Positions 24,605-61,319 are shown, counted from the stretch's first letter. The stretch: DNA of 64,000 nucleotides from Candidatus Micrarchaeota archaeon (GCA_021817325.1 JAKAVK010000018.1:9544-73543); one strand, 5' to 3'. A program made the numbers and translations. The notes: generated by a model from the letters alone, not told the origin.

Positions 24605-25306
24605 ATGGCGTATGACGATTTCACTGTTGTGCTACCCACATTAAACGAGGCCAAAAACATAGCGCCAATAATAAAGGGAATAAGGACTTACAGGAGGATA
24701 AGGATACTGGTTATGGATGATGGATCCACTGACGGAACGTGCGATATAGTTAAGAAATTAGCAAAGAAGTACAGAAACATCTCACTGGTTAATAGGAAAG
24801 AACTAAATTTACAGAAAGGGCTGACTGCGAGCGTGATTGACGGGTTCAAAAAAACAAAAACCAAATACGCAATAGTTATGGACGCTGATATGCAGCATCC
24901 TGTCGAAAAGGTGGGGGAGCTGGCATCTGCGCTGTTAGAAGGAGCGGACCTTGCCGTTGCAGTCAGGACCAAGATCTCAAACTGGCCATTCTACAGAAAG
25001 CTCATTTCAAAAATTCTGATTACCTTGGGCTATCTTGTATTACTGCTTAGAGGAGATGAGAGGTGTGGGGATATATTTTCTGGATTCTTCGGTATAAGGC
25101 GTGATGCCTTTACCAAAACGTATTCAAAGAACCACACCAGGTTCGTGCCCGGCGGATATAAAGTACTTTTCGACTTCTTGAAATGCATAAGCAGTGGGAG
25201 CCTAACCATAGCTGAAATCCCATACACATTCGGAATAAGGAAAGCCGATTCCTCCAAAGCTGGAATTAAACAAGGGCTGTTAGTGCTAAAGTCTTTTATC
25301 ACATGA
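24605..25306 (+). CDS. GT2 glycosyltransferase, dolichyl/polyprenyl-phosphate hexose synthase (Dpm1-like)
   Basis: 233-aa ORF. VVLPTLNEAKNI, VMDDGSTDGT and DADMQHP (DxD-type) motifs typical of Dpm1/GtrB-like GT2 enzymes. Confidence 0.8.
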   Translation: MAYDDFTVVLPTLNEAKNIAPIIKGIRTYRRIRILVMDDGSTDGTCDIVKKLAKKYRNISLVNRKELNLQKGLTASVIDGFKKTKTKYAIVMDADMQHPVEKVGELASALLEGADLAVAVRTKISNWPFYRKLISKILITLGYLVLLLRGDERCGDIFSGFFGIRRDAFTKTYSKNHTRFVPGGYKVLFDFLKCISSGSLTIAEIPYTFGIRKADSSKAGIKQGLLVLKSFIT

Positions 25307-25428: not shown

Positions 25429-26970
25429 ATGTCTATGCGGAAAGCTCTACTAAACGATAAGTTCCTAATTGCAGCCATCATAATATCAATTCTATACATG
25501 AGTTGCTGCTTCCTGCTTTATAATTACAGCTTCCAGGGCTTCGAACGTATATTTTTTGACATCGGTATAGAAACCTATAACATGTACTGGCATCTGCACG
25601 GGGCTCTGTACACGAACCCGTTCCAATTCCAATTCATTGTATTTGCTAATCACATCTCCCCATTTTTCGTCCTAATCCTGCCGCTTTTTGCACTGGACCA
25701 AAATGCAATGACACTGGTGTTTATCCAGGACATGTTTCTCGCAGCAACAAGCGTGGTGGCGTATTTAACAGGCCGTCAGTTAATCAAGAATGACCGGATA
25801 GCGTTCTATTTCTTTATCCTATTCCTATTTAGCCCAGGGATAAGTGCATTGGCCGTTTATGACTTTCACGCTGAGGCATTCGTGCCTATGTTCGTAATAC
25901 TCTCCTTCTACTTCTATACAAAGGGCAAAATCAAGTACTTTGTGATGAGCTACTTGCTGCTCTTAATGACTATTGAAGTTGCCTACTTTCTAGGCGCAGC
26001 GCTTCTTCTCGGACTGCTTGCTTATGAGATTCAATATAAAAAATATGGCGTTGAGCCTGACGCCTTAAGAGTCAGAAGGCGCCACATTCTATATGCGGGC
26101 TTTATTATGACCATCGCTACCGCCATCGCATACTACGCGATATCCGGCCAGATAAGTGCGAGTTACGCTGGAGTATCTTACTATAAACTGACCCCATATC
26201 TTCGCCTTGCAAATTATGTTTCCGGCCAGATCAACGCGATAGCCAATCCTTCGATAGTAAACACAACTATCTCCCAGACATATCCGGCAGGCCTTGCAGG
26301 AGTGACGATATTGGTTCTACAATTTGGTGGAGCTTCATTATTTTCACCAATATCAACACTACTCTTGTTATCTCCCTGGCTTGGAGAAGTTTTTATAGTT
26401 CATAATCTGAGTTTTACCGGAATACTCTACCAATATTATGGGTTTTTTGCTGGAAATTGTTTTGTCGCAGCAATTCTTGGATATCTTGTTGTCTATCGGA
26501 GGTCGGATCACCGATCAAGGTACCCTAGTCTGAAGGAGAGGATTTTGGCAAAGCTTCCCTCCACAATAATGATAATCGGCATTACGATATTCCTATATAC
26601 TGACCTCATCATCTTTGGGTACCTGCTTTCCGGAGAGCCAGCGGCAAACTCAGCATCCTTATCACTTGCCATTGCAGCAATACCCCAAAATGCGGTAGTA
26701 ATGACACAGTCAACCTTATCTACCCATATGGCAAATTTTTATCAACTAGAAATGCCGCCTACTGAATCGTTAAGATGGTTCGAGCCCAGGAACGCCAGCA
26801 ACACAGATTTGTTTTGGGCGCAGCCCCAATACATACTTATAGACAAAAATACTTACGATTATACACAGGCATTCAATACTACGCAATTTAACGTGTATTC
26901 CTATATGCGTTCCAACTATACTGAGATCTACAACTCATCAGGCGTGTATTTATACGAGATAAAACGATAA
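25429..26970 (+). CDS. DUF2079-like polytopic membrane protein (predicted GT-C glycosyltransferase)
   Basis: 513-aa ORF. N-terminal FDIGIETYNMYWHLHG and FANHISPFFVLILPLFAL resemble the DUF2079 signature. Paralog of 28699..30240, which is the same length. Confidence 0.6.
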   Translation: MSMRKALLNDKFLIAAIIISILYMSCCFLLYNYSFQGFERIFFDIGIETYNMYWHLHGALYTNPFQFQFIVFANHISPFFVLILPLFALDQNAMTLVFIQDMFLAATSVVAYLTGRQLIKNDRIAFYFFILFLFSPGISALAVYDFHAEAFVPMFVILSFYFYTKGKIKYFVMSYLLLLMTIEVAYFLGAALLLGLLAYEIQYKKYGVEPDALRVRRRHILYAGFIMTIATAIAYYAISGQISASYAGVSYYKLTPYLRLANYVSGQINAIANPSIVNTTISQTYPAGLAGVTILVLQFGGASLFSPISTLLLLSPWLGEVFIVHNLSFTGILYQYYGFFAGNCFVAAILGYLVVYRRSDHRSRYPSLKERILAKLPSTIMIIGITIFLYTDLIIFGYLLSGEPAANSASLSLAIAAIPQNAVVMTQSTLSTHMANFYQLEMPPTESLRWFEPRNASNTDLFWAQPQYILIDKNTYDYTQAFNTTQFNVYSYMRSNYTEIYNSSGVYLYEIKR

Positions 26971-28114: not shown

Positions 28115-28702
28115 ATGGAAGAGAGTGGGATGCGAAGGGAGGAGTTGGAGGAATATGCAGTGGTACTGGATTACCTGCCTATCGGCAGATCCTCTTCCGC
28201 AAGGGCTGAGCCGGTAGTTCAGCTACTCGGGGAAAACAAATTCACGCTCTTGGAAGCTGTTCCAAAAGGTAGTGAGTTGCGGGTAGGCGAGAGTGCATAC
28301 ATAGGCAAGGGGGAGAGAGACAAGATATCCCTAATAAAAAGCAGACTAAACTACAATGACCTAACAGAAGGTGCAAAGAAGGAGTTGCCAGAAGCAATAT
28401 CCATGATAATCAGGAAGAACGAGAAGAAGTTTGTTGACCTATTCAACAATGCATCTTCACTGAATATACGGATGCATTCTCTTGAGCTGCTCCCGAATGT
28501 CGGCAAGAAGCACCTCAAGGCAATACTCGAAGCACGCGAGGAGAAGCCATTCGAAAGTTTTGCAGATATAGCTGCAAGGGTGCCTTTGCTTCAGGATCCA
28601 ATAAAATTGATAGTGGAAAGGATAATAGAGGAGCTTAAAGGCAACAGCCGCTTCTACCTTCTTACAAAGCCGCCTGCGGCAGAGCACTACGATAGGCGTT
28701 AA
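28115..28702 (+). CDS. DUF655-family protein (conserved rpoF neighbour, putative nucleic-acid binding)
   Basis: EEYAVVLDYLPIGRS...VVQLLGENKFTLLEAVPK plus a C-terminal helix-hairpin-helix-like region. ATG at 28115; the track ORF starts at a GTG at 28106. Confidence 0.7.
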   Translation: MEESGMRREELEEYAVVLDYLPIGRSSSARAEPVVQLLGENKFTLLEAVPKGSELRVGESAYIGKGERDKISLIKSRLNYNDLTEGAKKELPEAISMIIRKNEKKFVDLFNNASSLNIRMHSLELLPNVGKKHLKAILEAREEKPFESFADIAARVPLLQDPIKLIVERIIEELKGNSRFYLLTKPPAAEHYDRR

Positions 28703-30240
28703 CTTGATATTCTCTGATATATCATCAGGCCCGACTCGTTATAAATTAGGGCATAGCTATTATTTACATAACTAAGAATCGTTGGCTGTAGTGCGCTGCC
28801 ATTTTTCATCTTCGTCGTATTTTCATAAGCCACTATGTATTCCGGTGAAAACCAATGAAGAGTCATTCCACGAGGCGAGAAAAGAGTGTCACCCACTACT
28901 ACACCAGGCTGAAATTCAATATTTCTAATGCGGTACAGATGCGGCAGTATTATATCCTGACTCATTACCGTGGCGTTTTGTGGGATTATTGCAATGCCGC
29001 TTTTAATTAGCGTGAAGTTATGCGATGGTGTATTTATTATCGTGACATAGCTCAATATCAAAGCAGATGCCAAGCCTATAGCAAGGAGAACGGATAACGA
29101 GAGTATAGTGGAAGTAATCATCACCCTCTCTCTTTTTATATCCATCTTAAACCAGAAAATGTGTTTATCTTTTTTGATTATAAGCATACCAAGTATTGCG
29201 GCCACAAAGCTACCGCCGACCACGTAAGCGTAGTATTGACTGTAATAGTTTCCGAGCACAGAGTCATGGAGGAGGAATAGACCCACGAGCCAAGGCAGTA
29301 AGAGAATAACTGCCAAGGAGGGGCGCTTTAATGATGTTATGCCAAAGCCAAAGAAAGCTATTGCTATTCCCGCTATCTCGCTGAGTAACAACTCGCTAGG
29401 ATTATACGGCACCCCTATGAAAATAGAGGACGCGATTGCCCCTAAGTTTATGAAGCTGCCGTACCTCATAAGGGGCGAAAGTTCGTAATACGGTATCTGC
29501 GGATATACAGAGACAAGATAACTTGATATAACATAATATAAGCATATGGCAAGAGCCGTAAGTACGAGTCCATTAACGAGTAATTTAAATCGCGCCGTGC
29601 GCAGCATGTCAGATGCGCCGCCATTATCATGTTTATGCGATAACTCGTAGGCTAGCAGGCCGAGCAGCAATGTGCCTGCTACAAAAGGCGCATCTTCCAT
29701 TATAGATAGCAATATAATATAGCTTGCCAGGAAGCCTACCTTCCTCCCCTTCATATAAAAGTAAAATGAAAGCACGTAGAATAGTGGCATAAACGCCTCA
29801 CTGTGGATTGGAAAATACAGCATGCCTGTCACCCCAGGATTGAGCAGATATGCGACTGCCATTGCGAACCCGATCTGGGGCATTTTTATCAGATCTTTTG
29901 TCACTACGTAAACTAAAATCGCAACGATTGTGATTGCAATGTCCTGTATCGCTATTAACGTTATTGGATACTGATACAAGTAGAACAGAGGCAGCAAAAG
30001 CATGCTGAAAGGGGAGATATGATTTGCAAATATAAGGTATTGCACTACTCCTTCAAGACCGGGGACCATCGTGCCATGCAGATGCCAATACGCACTATAA
30101 GTCCATATGCCTATGTCATAAAAATTAACTTGGTACGTGGTAAATATAAGATTGCCATAGTATATCCAGTACACAGTAAATGCCAATGTCAGAAGTGCTA
30201 CAGCTGCAAGATATCTATCCTGCAATATTTGCTTGTACAT
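28699..30240 (-). CDS. DUF2079-like polytopic membrane protein, second copy (inverted)
   Basis: 513-aa ORF. FYDIGIWTYSAYWHLHG and FANHISPFSMLLLPLFYL align with 25429..26970. Confidence 0.6.
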   Translation of the reverse strand: MYKQILQDRYLAAVALLTLAFTVYWIYYGNLIFTTYQVNFYDIGIWTYSAYWHLHGTMVPGLEGVVQYLIFANHISPFSMLLLPLFYLYQYPITLIAIQDIAITIVAILVYVVTKDLIKMPQIGFAMAVAYLLNPGVTGMLYFPIHSEAFMPLFYVLSFYFYMKGRKVGFLASYIILLSIMEDAPFVAGTLLLGLLAYELSHKHDNGGASDMLRTARFKLLVNGLVLTALAICLYYVISSYLVSVYPQIPYYELSPLMRYGSFINLGAIASSIFIGVPYNPSELLLSEIAGIAIAFFGFGITSLKRPSLAVILLLPWLVGLFLLHDSVLGNYYSQYYAYVVGGSFVAAILGMLIIKKDKHIFWFKMDIKRERVMITSTILSLSVLLAIGLASALILSYVTIINTPSHNFTLIKSGIAIIPQNATVMSQDIILPHLYRIRNIEFQPGVVVGDTLFSPRGMTLHWFSPEYIVAYENTTKMKNGSALQPTILSYVNNSYALIYNESGLMIYQRISS

Positions 30241-30330: not shown

Positions 30331-30567
30331 TTAGCCGCGATGCAAGAATGGCATTTCTATATCCTTGCCAGCGACATCCGGCACCGAAGCATTATCGTTG
30401 CGCGGCAGCTTTATAAGAAGTTCGTGAAAGTCACGTTCTACTATCTCCCTATCTATGCCATGGCGTTTTCCAGAAAGGTGGCTCTTCCCTCCTTCGATTG
30501 TATATGCGACCTCCCCGCAAATAGACGTACCTGTTCTGATCTGGCATATAAAGCGTGACCGTTCCAT
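30331..30567 (-). CDS. Hypothetical small protein
   Basis: 78-aa ORF with more protein-like composition than the overlapping 72-aa plus-strand ORF. No motif recognised. Confidence 0.3.
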   Translation of the reverse strand: MERSRFICQIRTGTSICGEVAYTIEGGKSHLSGKRHGIDREIVERDFHELLIKLPRNDNASVPDVAGKDIEMPFLHRG

Positions 30568-30667
30568 CGTATCAATAGTCTCTTATTCCAAGATCTATAT
30601 ATGCTAACTCGTAAGAATTTCAAATAATTGACGAAAGATATTTATATTTTTGAATATTATCCAAATT

Positions 30668-31117
30668 ATGAGGAATCTGAAGCCACAACTAATCGAGCTG
30701 CTGAAGAGCGGCGGCTGCACGCCTAGGATATCAAAGTTAGCTAGGAATCTGCATACCCGTTCCAGTACCATCCATTACAACATAAAGTCAATGGAAAAGG
30801 ATGGAACCGTGCGCTCGTACAAGGCCGTCTTTGATTACAAGAAGATAGGGGAGGGGTTCTGCACCTTTGTCCTAATACACCTATCACCTGACGAGTATTC
30901 CGACCCGCTCAAAATAGCAAACATGCTGGCAGCATATCCTGAGATAGAAAGCATCGATGTGGTGACCGGCGAGTGGGAACTACTTATCAAGGTCAGGACA
31001 GCAAGCATAGAGGAATATTACACATTCGCAACACGTGTGCTCTCTATAAAGGGCATAGCGAGGACGCAGTCACTAAACTCGCTCAAACAGGTAAAGACCG
31101 AATTTGTGATCTTATAG
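30668..31117 (+). CDS. Lrp/AsnC-family transcriptional regulator
   Basis: About 149 aa from the ATG at 30668. N-terminal HTH (ISKLARNLHTRSSTIHYNIKSMEKDG) and a C-terminal RAM-like alpha/beta domain (IESIDVVTGEWELLIKV). Confidence 0.7.
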   Translation: MRNLKPQLIELLKSGGCTPRISKLARNLHTRSSTIHYNIKSMEKDGTVRSYKAVFDYKKIGEGFCTFVLIHLSPDEYSDPLKIANMLAAYPEIESIDVVTGEWELLIKVRTASIEEYYTFATRVLSIKGIARTQSLNSLKQVKTEFVIL

Positions 31118-31129
31118 AAAAATGATGCT

Positions 31130-31432
31130 CTACCGCTTGTCTGCGGTAAACCTTTCCAGGTACATCTGCGGTACGACAAGGCTTCTCTTGGTGGACTTCG
31201 AGACCAGCACGTCAACTACATATGCGCTGCCCCTGCTCTCAATGACAGTGCCTATCCTTCCCTTATACCTCGGGTGGGGTATGTTTTTGAAGTTGCCATG
31301 AGGTGCTATAATCACCTTATCACCTGGCTTGAAGACATTTATCAGTTTGGTTATACCAAGCTTTGATGGTTTGTCGTGCCTTGCCAGGTGCCTGGTTCTG
31401 CCTGAGAATAATCCATGCGAACGCTTGCTCAT
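31130..31432 (-). CDS. rpl21e: 50S ribosomal protein L21e
   Basis: MSKRSHGLFSGRTRHL...FKPGDKVIIAPHGN...PHPRYKGRIGTV matches the L21e family. Start set at MSKRS; the track ORF extends 8 codons further. Confidence 0.85.
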   Translation of the reverse strand: MSKRSHGLFSGRTRHLARHDKPSKLGITKLINVFKPGDKVIIAPHGNFKNIPHPRYKGRIGTVIESRGSAYVVDVLVSKSTKRSLVVPQMYLERFTADKR

Positions 31433-31549
31433 GTATATTACCTCCTGCCGCAGCATACCTAGCGGTCTAACTGACGGCTGATACTAGATACATTTAAATA
31501 CCAATATATAAATACCTTTACATAGTAGGAATAGTGCTTGAGTGATAAA

Positions 31550-31873
31550 ATGGCAAAGGCAGCAAAAAACAGCAAGAAGGTCAGTCTCCACCCGGAGTTT
31601 AAGATAGAGAACATAGTTGCCAGCGCTGATTTGGGAGTTGAGCTTGACCTTTACGGAATAGCGAAGGCCTCTCCAGATGTTGATTACGAGCCTGAGCAGT
31701 TTCCAGGTGCCATATGCAAGATACACGAACCAAAGACAGCACTACTACTATTCAAGAACGGCAAGATAATCTGCACCGGAGCCAAGACCGAAGCCGACAT
31801 AAAAAGGGCCATAGACCAGGTAATAAAGATAGTCAAGAACTACATTATCGAGCCAAGGGAGAAAACAGAATAA
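31550..31873 (+). CDS. Single-repeat TATA-binding-protein-like protein (half-size TBP)
   Basis: 107 aa from the ATG at 31550. KIENIVASADLGVELDL...YEPEQFPGAICKIHEPKTALLLFKNGKIICTGAKTEADIKRAI is one complete TBP repeat. The ORF stops at the linker where repeat 2 normally begins, and no second repeat is present in any frame downstream. Confidence 0.65.
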   Translation: MAKAAKNSKKVSLHPEFKIENIVASADLGVELDLYGIAKASPDVDYEPEQFPGAICKIHEPKTALLLFKNGKIICTGAKTEADIKRAIDQVIKIVKNYIIEPREKTE

Positions 31874-31907: not shown

Positions 31908-32032
31908 ACCATTTTGGTATGTTGTAAAACCAGCCAGCATACCGCAAGAATAAAGGAAGATTCGTGCCTGGTGGCTATAAGGTACTGTTTGATTTCCTAA
32001 AATGCCTGCTACATGGATCTTTCTTCAGCTAA
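31908..32032 (+). pseudogene. Remnant of a Dpm1-like GT2 gene (C-terminal fragment)
   Basis: Hand translation AYRKNKGRFVPGGYKVLFDFLKCLLHGSFFS* aligns with TYSKNHTRFVPGGYKVLFDFLKCISSGS of 24605..25306. No upstream catalytic domain is present. Confidence 0.6.
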
Positions 32033-32685
32033 CGCGTGCCCTTGCGGCCAGCTCCCCGTCCTGCAGCAGAGTTCCTTATCCTTCTCAATGCGTATACGTA
32101 GATCAGGTAAAGTATTATTGCGAAAACCCCTATCGCAGCAAATATCAAGGTGGCGCTAGTCGCGTTGCCAATATAATAGCCGAAGATTATAAGTGCAACA
32201 TCCCAGATCACCGTGCCTGCGAATGACGTCAGAAAAAACTTCTTCTGCGGCATCTCCGCGAATCCTGCAGGGAAGCTTATCAGCCCGCGCACCACCGGTA
32301 TGAACCTGCTTATGAAGACTGCGAACGAACCGTTGCTCTCAAACCACCTGTCAAAGGCGTCTAGTGTGCTCTGCTTGATATGGAAGAGCTTGAGATGCTT
32401 GTAGACGATATCCTTCCCTACGAAATACGCGATATAGTAATCGATCTCAAAACCTATTACGCTGCCTATTATGGCCGCCGTGGCCCCTAGTGCCATGTTC
32501 AGCTGCCCCTGTGCTGCAAGGTAGCCTATCGCAGGCAGCACGACCTCGCTGGGTACCGGAAGCGATGCTGACTCAAGCAGCATCAGTGCAAGTATGGCGT
32601 AGTACTTGTACGCCACTATCAAATGCAGAAGATATGCTGCACTGGCTGACGCTGCAGTAGCATTTACGCCAGCAAGAAATACCAT
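32029..32685 (-). CDS. DedA-family membrane protein
   Basis: LESASLPVPSEVVLPAIGY and FISRFIPVVRGLISFPAGFAEMP are DedA/SNARE-associated signatures. Start set at MVFLAG to avoid overlap with pelota. Confidence 0.75.
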   Translation of the reverse strand: MVFLAGVNATAASASAAYLLHLIVAYKYYAILALMLLESASLPVPSEVVLPAIGYLAAQGQLNMALGATAAIIGSVIGFEIDYYIAYFVGKDIVYKHLKLFHIKQSTLDAFDRWFESNGSFAVFISRFIPVVRGLISFPAGFAEMPQKKFFLTSFAGTVIWDVALIIFGYYIGNATSATLIFAAIGVFAIILYLIYVYALRRIRNSAAGRGAGRKGTR

Positions 32686-32749
32686 GCTCTTAATTAGCTT
32701 CACATGCTTATAAATGCGACGCATCACATACAATATCAGGATGATTGGC

Positions 32750-33769
32750 ATGCGCATAATACGCCTCAATGGCGTTACCAACTTCCTCAAGGTTGAGCCC
32801 CAGTCATTCGACGATCTGTATCTCCTGGCCATGGTCATCTCCACCGGAGATAAGGTGGAGGCGCACAGCTACAGGCGGTTCAAGGCAAACGAGAGGGATA
32901 CGGGAGAGCAGAAGGAGGTCTTCATAAGGCTGCATATAGAGAAGGTGGAGATAGATAAGGGCGCAGGCAGGCTGCGCCTCATGGGCAGCATACTGGATGG
33001 CCATCCGCAGGAGTTCGTGAGCATAGGTAGCCATCACACAATAAACGTGGCACCAGGCGACATCATAGACGTGCAGAAGGAGGAGTGGAAGAGCTACATA
33101 ATTCGCAGGCTCAAGCAGGCGGTCGCAGATTCCAGAAAGCCGCGCCTGGGAATTGTGGTCCTAGACGATGAAAAGGCGCTATTCTCATACGTGCGGGGCT
33201 ACGGCATAGACCTGGCAAACGAACTGTACAGCCACCTTAGCAAGAGGATGAAGGAGAAAGACTTTGCAAAGCAGCGCAGCGAGTACTTCAACGAGATAAT
33301 AGGCTATGTCAATAACATGTCTGTTGATATGGTGATACTCGCAGGCCCGGGATTCACAAAGGATGACATTAAAAGATACATATCTGATAATCACATCGAG
33401 GTCAAGAAGAGGCTCTTCTATCTTCCGGCAAGCGATGCGGAGAGATCCGGGATCAGGGAGGTTATGCGCAGCAACGCAGTCGCCGAGCTTCTTGAGAGCG
33501 AGCATGTGAAGAAGGAGTTCGAGTATCTGAATGAGTTCCTAAGCAGCTTGAGGCTAGGCGCTGCCCATTACGGCGCCGAGAATGTCGCAAGATCGCTGCG
33601 GGAGGGCCGTCCGGAAAGGGTTCTTGTGAACGACTCTGCAATAAACGAGAAGCAGGTGAGGGAAGTGCTCGACATCGCCGACAAGAAAGGAGTAAGGATA
33701 GAGATATTCAACTCCGAGGATGACGCAGGGATGCAGCTAAGGAACTTCAAGGACATTGCCTGCATCTGA
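32750..33769 (+). CDS. pelA: Pelota (Dom34) mRNA surveillance / ribosome rescue factor
   Basis: MRIIRLNG...FLKVEPQSFDDLYLL N-terminus and eRF1-like central and C-terminal domains (VILAGPGFTKDD). About 339 aa from the ATG at 32750. Confidence 0.85.
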   Translation: MRIIRLNGVTNFLKVEPQSFDDLYLLAMVISTGDKVEAHSYRRFKANERDTGEQKEVFIRLHIEKVEIDKGAGRLRLMGSILDGHPQEFVSIGSHHTINVAPGDIIDVQKEEWKSYIIRRLKQAVADSRKPRLGIVVLDDEKALFSYVRGYGIDLANELYSHLSKRMKEKDFAKQRSEYFNEIIGYVNNMSVDMVILAGPGFTKDDIKRYISDNHIEVKKRLFYLPASDAERSGIREVMRSNAVAELLESEHVKKEFEYLNEFLSSLRLGAAHYGAENVARSLREGRPERVLVNDSAINEKQVREVLDIADKKGVRIEIFNSEDDAGMQLRNFKDIACI

Positions 33770-44626: not shown

Positions 44627-44700
44627 CGGGGAGTCCGTGATTTGAACACGGGTCACCACCTCCCGAAGGTGGTAGCCTAACCAGACTAGCAGAACTCCCC
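44627..44700 (-). tRNA. tRNA-Pro (anticodon CGG)
   Basis: The reverse complement folds as a cloverleaf. Acceptor GGGGAGT/ACTCCCC, anticodon arm CCACC-TTCGGGA-GGTGG, T arm CCGTG-TTCAAAT-CACGG, discriminator G. One U-U mismatch in the D stem. Confidence 0.8.
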
Positions 44701-55022: not shown

Positions 55023-55093
55023 TGGAGGCAAGGAGAATTGAACTCCTGTCTGCAGAATGTCAATCTGCTATCCTACCACTAGACTATGCCTCC
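55023..55093 (-). tRNA. tRNA-Val (anticodon GAC)
   Basis: Reverse complement: acceptor GGAGGCA/TGCCTCC, anticodon arm GCAGA-TTGACAT-TCTGC, T arm AGGAG-TTCAATT-CTCCT, discriminator A. Confidence 0.8.
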
Positions 55094-61216: not shown

Positions 61217-61220
61217 AGTG

Positions 61221-61319
61221 CGCCGGGGTAGGGATTTGAACCCTAACTTCCTTGCGGAAACCAGATCTCGAGTTTCGCCTGAATGCAACTGGCGCGTTAC
61301 CGGATTCCGCCACCCCGGC
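61221..61319 (-). tRNA. tRNA-Ser (anticodon CGA) with putative 15-nt intron at a non-canonical position
   Basis: Reverse complement: acceptor GCCGGGG/CCCCGGC, discriminator G, long variable arm TTCC-GCAA-GGAA, T arm TAGGG-TTCAAAT-CCCTA. The anticodon region CCAG[TTGCATTCAGGCGAA]A-CTCGAGA-TCTGG folds canonically only if 15 nt in the 5' anticodon stem (about position 30/31) are removed. Confidence 0.65.

Follow-up and report, generated by a model that had tools for sequence, protein, structure and literature searches.

TBP is a textbook pseudo-symmetric protein, thought to have been duplicated and fused from the gene of a homodimeric ancestor, and archaeal TBPs are highly symmetric, with near-symmetric two-repeat forms in Methanococcales and Thermoplasmatales. 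To our knowledge, experimenters have never had the ancestral one-repeat state to work with as a functioning general transcription factor. Split protein-coding genes are also known from DPANN archaea such as Nanoarchaeum equitans. Stand-alone single TBP domains have been described in Archaea by Brindefalk et al. 2013 (PMC3597702), whose monopartite TBP-domain proteins are the halobacterial TbpA and a "significantly diverged" Thermococcales class. Here we analyse a single-repeat TBP gene in a 64,000-nucleotide stretch of DNA from a Micrarchaeota archaeon (hereafter the window). The protein resembles TbpA and the Thermococcales class in being a stand-alone single TBP domain in Archaea, but TbpA is an extra copy beside full-length TBPs, whereas the half-gene of the window sits at the canonical tbp locus; the Thermococcales proteins are distant from TBP and co-exist with a normal TBP, whereas the window protein is a close TBP relative. 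The half-TBPs described here differ from both in forming two conserved, unlinked families (G1 with its sister group G1b, and G2), with no two-repeat TBP among the assemblies listed. Two unlinked pieces for a one-chain protein in a reduced DPANN genome recall N. equitans, although the pieces there are consecutive and dissimilar, whereas G1 and G2 are homologous to each other. In near-symmetric two-repeat TBPs the repeats are almost interchangeable but covalently joined; the window protein represents the unlinked state, and two tandem genes discussed below look like a secondary re-linking. Single-domain TBPs were known before; the present case stands apart through its close kinship with TBP and its canonical position, a second unlinked family, and collapsed, duplicated and re-fused states in one phylum. 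We found no description of a half-size or single-repeat TBP from DPANN in the full-text literature searched, where Brindefalk et al. 2013 was the only related paper; a report outside that literature is possible. The A_DKE supplements contain no usable expression or annotation data.

The window ORF is a real, conserved gene made of exactly one complete TBP repeat (Table 1). It starts with ATG, with an in-frame TTG at 31538, and its product gives a single match to PF00352 that spans the full profile (1-85 of 85, residues 16-98; E 1.8e-30; 105 bits against a curated cut-off of 22.9 bits). A preliminary description of this DNA had called it one complete TBP repeat encoded as a stand-alone 107-aa protein, and both the single full-length match and a structural model of one repeat bear this out. 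It had also stated that no second repeat lies downstream in any frame, and this holds for all six frames of the 64-kb window, where a tblastn search with the window protein as query found only the gene itself at E<=10. TBPs in the PDB match the protein at E 3e-45, both repeats of M. jannaschii 2z8u align with it about equally (78.6 and 78.3 bits), and its identity is 44-48% to solved archaeal TBP repeats and 55-70% to DPANN TBP repeats. An AlphaFold2 model built from a deep alignment (pLDDT 88.3; a shallow alignment of G1 alone gave an unusable pLDDT of 44) has the topology S1-H1-S2-S3-S4-S5-H2, and in Foldseek superpositions it fits a single repeat of TBPs from human, yeast and archaea with an rmsd of 0.8-1.2 Å over 83-86 residues and a TM score normalised by target of ~0.46, i.e. 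half a TBP. N21, F51, F68 and T76, like the stirrup YEPEQFPG (Y46-G53), do not vary among 22 orthologues and line up with the corresponding residues of solved TBPs. We take N21 (the S1 Asn), F51 and F68 (the intercalating, DNA-kinking Phe pair) and T76 (the S5 Thr) to be DNA-contact residues and the stirrup to be TFB-binding; the Phe pair, the central Asn and Thr, and the stirrup are retained in both G1 and G2. In fold, family, stirrup and DNA-contact residues the protein is like canonical archaeal TBPs (P. woesei 1PCZ/1AIS, M. jannaschii 2Z8U), but these carry two PF00352 repeats in tandem in each polypeptide, whereas the window protein has one, and its saddle needs two chains.

Table 1. Features of the window discussed in the text, with coordinates counted from the first nucleotide of the window.
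Feature	Coordinates	Strand	Basis or remark
Half-TBP gene (group G1), 107 aa	31550..31873	+	Pfam PF00352, PDB TBP matches, AF2 model, conservation
Domains of the 107-aa protein: Lys-rich N-terminal tail, residues 1-15; TBP repeat, residues 16-98; short C-terminal tail
TATA-box-like motif ATATATAAATACCTTT, about 40 nt 5' of ATG	31504..31519	+	Conserved in orthologues; putative promoter element
Shine-Dalgarno-like GAGTGAT, 4-10 nt 5' of ATG	31540..31546	+	Same-position motifs in orthologues; putative function
Ribosomal protein L21e, divergent neighbour, synteny anchor	31130..31456	-	Pfam PF01157
DedA/VTT-domain membrane protein, convergent downstream neighbour	32029..32685	-	Pfam PF09335, E 1.9e-19
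Pelota (eRF1-like)	32714..33769	+	Pfam eRF1_1/2/3; synteny conserved
GT2 gene, intact, 6 kb upstream	24605-25306		Sole GT2 nearby
DUF2079 gene	25429-26970	+
DUF2079 gene	28699-30240	-
78-aa ORF	30331-30567	-
Lrp/AsnC	30650-31117	+
tRNA-Pro	44627-44700	-	ARAGORN
tRNA-Val	55023-55093		Rfam
tRNA-like gene, 100 nt	61220-61319	-	ARAGORN

The identical 107-aa protein is encoded in a constant neighbourhood on 17 independent contigs; these derive from at least 9 samples, one source being the NCBI MAG GCA_027363355.1. Its G1 relatives form about 20 further orthologue clusters of 103-130 aa that are 79-95% identical to it, and a comparison of 22 clusters shows hardly any change at residues 17-95, in contrast to the two tails, which vary freely. 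Pairwise NG86 comparison of the core gives a median dN/dS of 0.055, with dS saturated. Between the window gene and its orthologue at locus L011, dN is 0.031 and dS 2.2, and identity is 95% over the TBP core but only 63% over the neighbouring L21e. The preliminary description had pictured, as the mark of a truncated pseudogene, a short form lacking orthologues in relatives and evolving under relaxed selection; what we see is about 20 G1 clusters with a near-invariant core, and a dN/dS of about 0.05, which is strong purifying selection. The TATA-like elements that it had reported upstream are present as well, the relevant part being the motif in Table 1. Roughly 18 of 21 orthologous G1 loci have a motif of the ATATATAAATACCTTT type at the same distance from the start, despite divergence of the remaining spacer and of synonymous sites; its exact 13-mer core, TATAAATACCTTT, occurs once in the 64-kb window, and ATATATAAATACC is the gene's own upstream motif. 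GTGAT/GGTG-type motifs occupy the position equivalent to that of the Shine-Dalgarno-like element in most G1 loci. We regard these conserved upstream motifs as putative promoter and Shine-Dalgarno signals.

The position of the gene is that of tbp itself. Sister Micrarchaeia (loci L017 and L019) have a 182-aa two-repeat tbp divergent to an L21e-RpoF-DUF655 cluster, and L21e stands beside a two-repeat tbp in 24 of the 28 Micrarchaeota/Iainarchaeota loci listed. The window gene, too, is divergent from L21e with RpoF and DUF655 nearby, so it shares its position with the canonical tbp of other Micrarchaeota and is its positional orthologue. This arrangement recurs across the family: among the loci listed, G1 adjoins L21e in 41 of 56 and DedA/VTT in 46 of 56, and G1b adjoins L21e in 27 of 37. 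Since the half-gene and the two-repeat tbp occupy one and the same locus, the half-gene is probably not an extra copy. The proposal that this is a functional single-repeat TBP paralog that could homodimerise or heterodimerise is supported by conservation, strong purifying selection, conserved expression signals and the ancestral locus, but "paralog" has to give way to positional orthologue. On the downstream side, the spacer between the TBP and DedA/VTT genes is 155 bp in the window species as against 3-11 bp in relatives, and neither this spacer nor the small plus-strand ORFs there have any Pfam match. The GT2 remnant that had been placed immediately downstream is absent from this spacer; what follows is an intact DedA/VTT gene, in an arrangement shared with other species.

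Some features of the neighbourhood are peculiar to the window species. The two DUF2079 membrane-protein genes bracket RpoF-DUF655, and DUF2079, the 78-aa ORF and the Lrp/AsnC gene part RpoF-DUF655 from L21e. In other G1 species (L011) RpoF-DUF655 and L21e are contiguous, and the Lrp gene beside the L21e/TBP pair is specific to the window species.

One-repeat TBPs are widespread in Micrarchaeota. A TBP scan of one genome per GTDB species, a sparse sample that yielded at least 80 loci, found single-repeat TBPs at 52 of the 80 loci listed from species-representative genomes; the window's own species is absent among the matches listed, the best of which is 90% identical. G1b is the sister group of G1 (56-66% identical), and G2 is a second single-repeat family, about 50% identical to the window protein and to G1. 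G2 lies in a context of its own, with an FAD-oxidoreductase gene on the minus strand, the TBP gene on the plus strand and a GT4 gene on the minus strand; GT4 is present in 66 of the 78 loci listed and L21e in none of the 78. The best 120 database matches to the G2 profile are all single-repeat proteins of 90-144 aa, on contigs of up to 0.94 and 1.2 Mb. Both half-TBP families go by "hypothetical protein" in PGAP/NCBI annotation, so that marker-based surveys of DPANN genomes may record TBP, in error, as absent or incomplete. Sources of G1 genes are labelled Micrarchaeota, Micrarchaeaceae or Marsarchaeota, the last probably a mislabelling, as these genes group with Micrarchaeota. Genes of the G2 type are carried by two contigs labelled Acidoferrum (L045, DATJLP010000005.1) and Methanothrix (L100, JAVYSI010000001.1), probably through bin contamination.

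A neighbour-joining tree of repeats, without bootstrap, has several single-repeat clades interleaved with two-repeat clades. The residue before YEPEQFPG is Asp in all 41 of 41 repeats of G1, G1b and G2 and Glu in 69 of 70 other Micrarchaeota/Iainarchaeota repeats, and this shared derived Asp indicates that G1, G1b and G2 all descend from one ancestral repeat within the lineage. Scored against N- and C-repeat profiles of canonical Micrarchaeota TBPs, neither G1 nor G2 has an N- or C-repeat signature, both being slightly C-like, so there is no clear sign that they arose as two halves by fission of one gene; an origin of G1 from the N-half and of G2 from the C-half, or the reverse, gave no signal in this scoring. 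At the S1 position NIV[A]S, Val is found in 119 of the best 120 G2 matches listed versus Ala in 56 of 56 G1; in either repeat of the 95 two-repeat relatives the residue is Ala, Ser or Cys (Ala/Ala in 86 of the 95).

Further single-repeat clades, mostly L21e-adjacent, are L038/L043/L046, L081/L087/L062/L072/L082, L090 and L057/L091. A partner family for them was not found among the loci listed, and they may have been reduced to one repeat independently of one another. Another pair of unlinked single-repeat TBP genes occurs in one MAG, that of Ca. Iainarchaeum AUK171 (L042 and L077; JAGGYF010000007.1 and JAGGYF010000044.1), one adjacent to L21e and the other elsewhere; both are of the Glu type and not of the Asp type of G1 and G2, and this is apparently an independent case. 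At L092 (CAZLMI010000001.1) a two-repeat TBP is frameshifted into two overlapping ORFs, which could be a sequencing error or a gene breaking up.

G1 and G2 co-occur in related MAGs. G1 next to L21e, together with G2 on another contig, was found in three MAGs of two species (GCA_049967555.1, GCA_975254265.1 and GCA_050749785.1), by way of an L21e profile search that led to the L21e proteins ACP5RT_01905 and ACREBF_03310, the G2 genes of the same assemblies being ACP5RT_00410 and ACREBF_00560. In GCA_049967555.1, contig 20 carries Pelota-VTT-TBP(94 aa)-L21e-DUF655 and contig 3 carries thermosome...TBP(101 aa)-GT4. The G1 proteins of these MAGs share 84% and 77% of their residues with the window protein, and the paired contigs agree in GC and in tetranucleotide composition (r 0.93 and 0.89; cross pairs give 0.53 and 0.76). 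In Mia14 (Micrarchaeaceae), whose genome is closed, there are two members of arCOG01764 (TBP) and one TFB (PMC5498576, Suppl. Data 4). Across two independent samples, genomes and metagenomes, the ratio of G1 plus G1b to G2 is about 1:1 among the loci listed (19:22 and 70:50). None of 38 assemblies among the species-genome matches listed holds both G1/G1b and G2, no locus-tag prefix is common to G1 and G2 proteins among the NCBI matches listed, the contigs of the two sets of matches listed have no length in common, and the SecY-anchored neighbourhoods of L011 and L101 each lack the other half-gene. Mutual exclusivity of G1 and G2 is contradicted by the three MAGs that have both, and these absences reflect sparse samples. 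The 64-kb window itself contains no G2 gene, and P0224 and P0205, considered through sample overlap as the G2 partner of the window species, belong to other species. Because the three MAGs, the Mia14 count, the ~1:1 ratio and the Iainarchaeum MAG all fit co-occurrence, the window's genome quite probably carries G2 outside the 64 kb.

One repeat makes half of a DNA-binding saddle, so a second repeat is needed in trans. The reading that we prefer, and to which sequence comparison lends about an even chance, is that the window protein is one half of a two-gene TBP and acts as a G1-G2 heterodimer with an unlinked G2. The gene would then encode a functional one-repeat TBP descended, at the original locus, from the canonical two-repeat tbp of Micrarchaeota, and its most likely partner would be the unlinked product encoded between the FAD-oxidoreductase and GT4 genes. 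A non-covalent G1-G2 heterodimer would restore the saddle with its ten strands and would bind the TATA box and bend it; the single TFB would be brought in via the conserved YEPEQFPG stirrup, with promoter polarity presumably set by TFB and the BRE as in other archaea. That archaeal promoter polarity is set in this way makes a symmetric or split TBP mechanistically plausible. The heterodimer is favoured by the co-retention of two constrained half-genes in genomes of ~1 Mb, by the single TFB and, weakly, by the change from Ala to Val at S1 in G2, an asymmetry that is weakly compatible with specialised halves. As G1 and G2 lack an N or C identity and share a derived residue, they look as if a gene reduced to one repeat had then been duplicated, or as if a homogenised gene had been split, and not like products of simple fission. 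The window genome probably has no two-repeat TBP at all. More broadly, we lean slightly towards a clade without any two-repeat TBP, in which separately encoded one-repeat proteins come together non-covalently to form the saddle universal to archaea and eukaryotes, whether as G1-G2 heterodimers, as homodimers or as both, and in which repeat number is labile through collapse, unlinked duplication and G1-G1 re-fusion.

The main rival, less likely in our view but a serious one, is that two copies of the 107-aa protein make up a symmetric working TBP by themselves, with G2, where present, forming its own homodimer as a paralogous TBP, or with mixed dimers as well. Nature seems to have made the covalent version of such a dimer: two L21e-adjacent genes nested in the single-repeat G1 clade, L181 (VFSW01006961.1) and L122 (Ga0326727_10533559), are in-frame G1-G1 tandem TBPs, with repeats that are 93-95% identical in amino acids and 85-88% in nucleotides (dN/dS about 0.03, dS 0.7-1.0). 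They look like a secondary tandem re-duplication of the half-TBP gene, and with purifying selection acting on them G1 can evidently pair with G1. The nearest two-repeat TBPs are in effect covalent homodimers as well, the repeats of the DPANN proteins P0002, P0003, P0004 and P0063 being 85-94% identical. At two-repeat loci L017, L035, L050 and L053, dS between the N and C repeats is 0.5-1.0, below the between-species dS, which suggests recurrent homogenisation (gene conversion) or re-duplication and likewise suits a symmetric dimer. So do the Ala/Ala pair at S1 that prevails in two-repeat relatives, with Ala in G1 too, and the other Micrarchaeota clades whose L21e-adjacent one-repeat TBP has no second family among the loci listed. 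Nor would a symmetric protein be out of place mechanistically, given the high symmetry of archaeal TBPs: polarity is reportedly set by TFB and the BRE, and the TBP of M. jannaschii is said to be able to recruit TFB through either stirrup. What speaks against homodimers is G2. It is kept beside G1 in three MAGs and is about as frequent as G1 across samples, Mia14 combines two TBP-family genes with a single TFB, and it would be unusual for a genome of ~1 Mb to maintain a conserved pair of paralogous general factors.

Compared with either dimer, we consider it improbable that the half-TBP is an accessory or regulatory protein that modulates an undetected canonical two-repeat TBP, in the manner of TbpA or by serving as a decoy for TFB or DNA. 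Single-domain TbpA does exist beside full TBPs in Halobacteria (PMC3597702), the window genome is seen over 64 kb, and the collection scans were pattern-limited and sparse, all of which leaves room for a hidden full-length gene. But the half-gene occupies the very locus that holds the canonical tbp in sister lineages, a two-repeat TBP appears in no G1, G1b or G2 assembly among the scan matches listed, the closed Mia14 genome has only two TBP-family genes, and constraint on the half-gene is stronger than on a ribosomal protein. A truncated pseudogene or rearrangement remnant is most improbable: the single repeat and the long downstream spacer would fit it, but the frame is intact and identical on all 17 contigs, orthologues with a dN/dS of about 0.05 exist in many species, the promoter-like and Shine-Dalgarno-like motifs are conserved, and synteny is kept on both sides with no GT2 remnant, so that the earlier idea of a truncated paralog left by a rearrangement is to be rejected for a gene conserved, with its neighbours, across species. 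Just as improbable is an assembly artefact in which short-read assemblers collapsed near-identical tandem repeats, for although related two-repeat TBPs can have very similar repeats, dozens of independent assemblies show the one-repeat gene, some of them on contigs of 242-659 kb (L024 and L026, whose MFD names suggest long reads), short-read assemblies do resolve the G1-G1 tandems, and the cores differ between species, yet every species invariably has just one.

If the two-gene, heterodimeric reading or its broader form proves correct, this clade of Micrarchaeota would be a living model of the postulated single-repeat, dimeric ancestor of TBP. Natural proteins would then be at hand with which one could ask whether a symmetric or split saddle binds and bends TATA DNA, and polarity and TFB recruitment without covalent asymmetry would become testable. 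The course of repeat fusion and fission might be tested too, with collapsed, duplicated-unlinked and re-fused states in one phylum.

A last observation concerns other genes of the window. Besides a tRNA-Pro, ARAGORN calls a tRNA-like gene of 100 nt whose "anticodon" has 4 bases and which may be an archaeal tRNA with an intron; neither call reaches the Rfam gathering score, which is reached by a tRNA-Val (Table 1).
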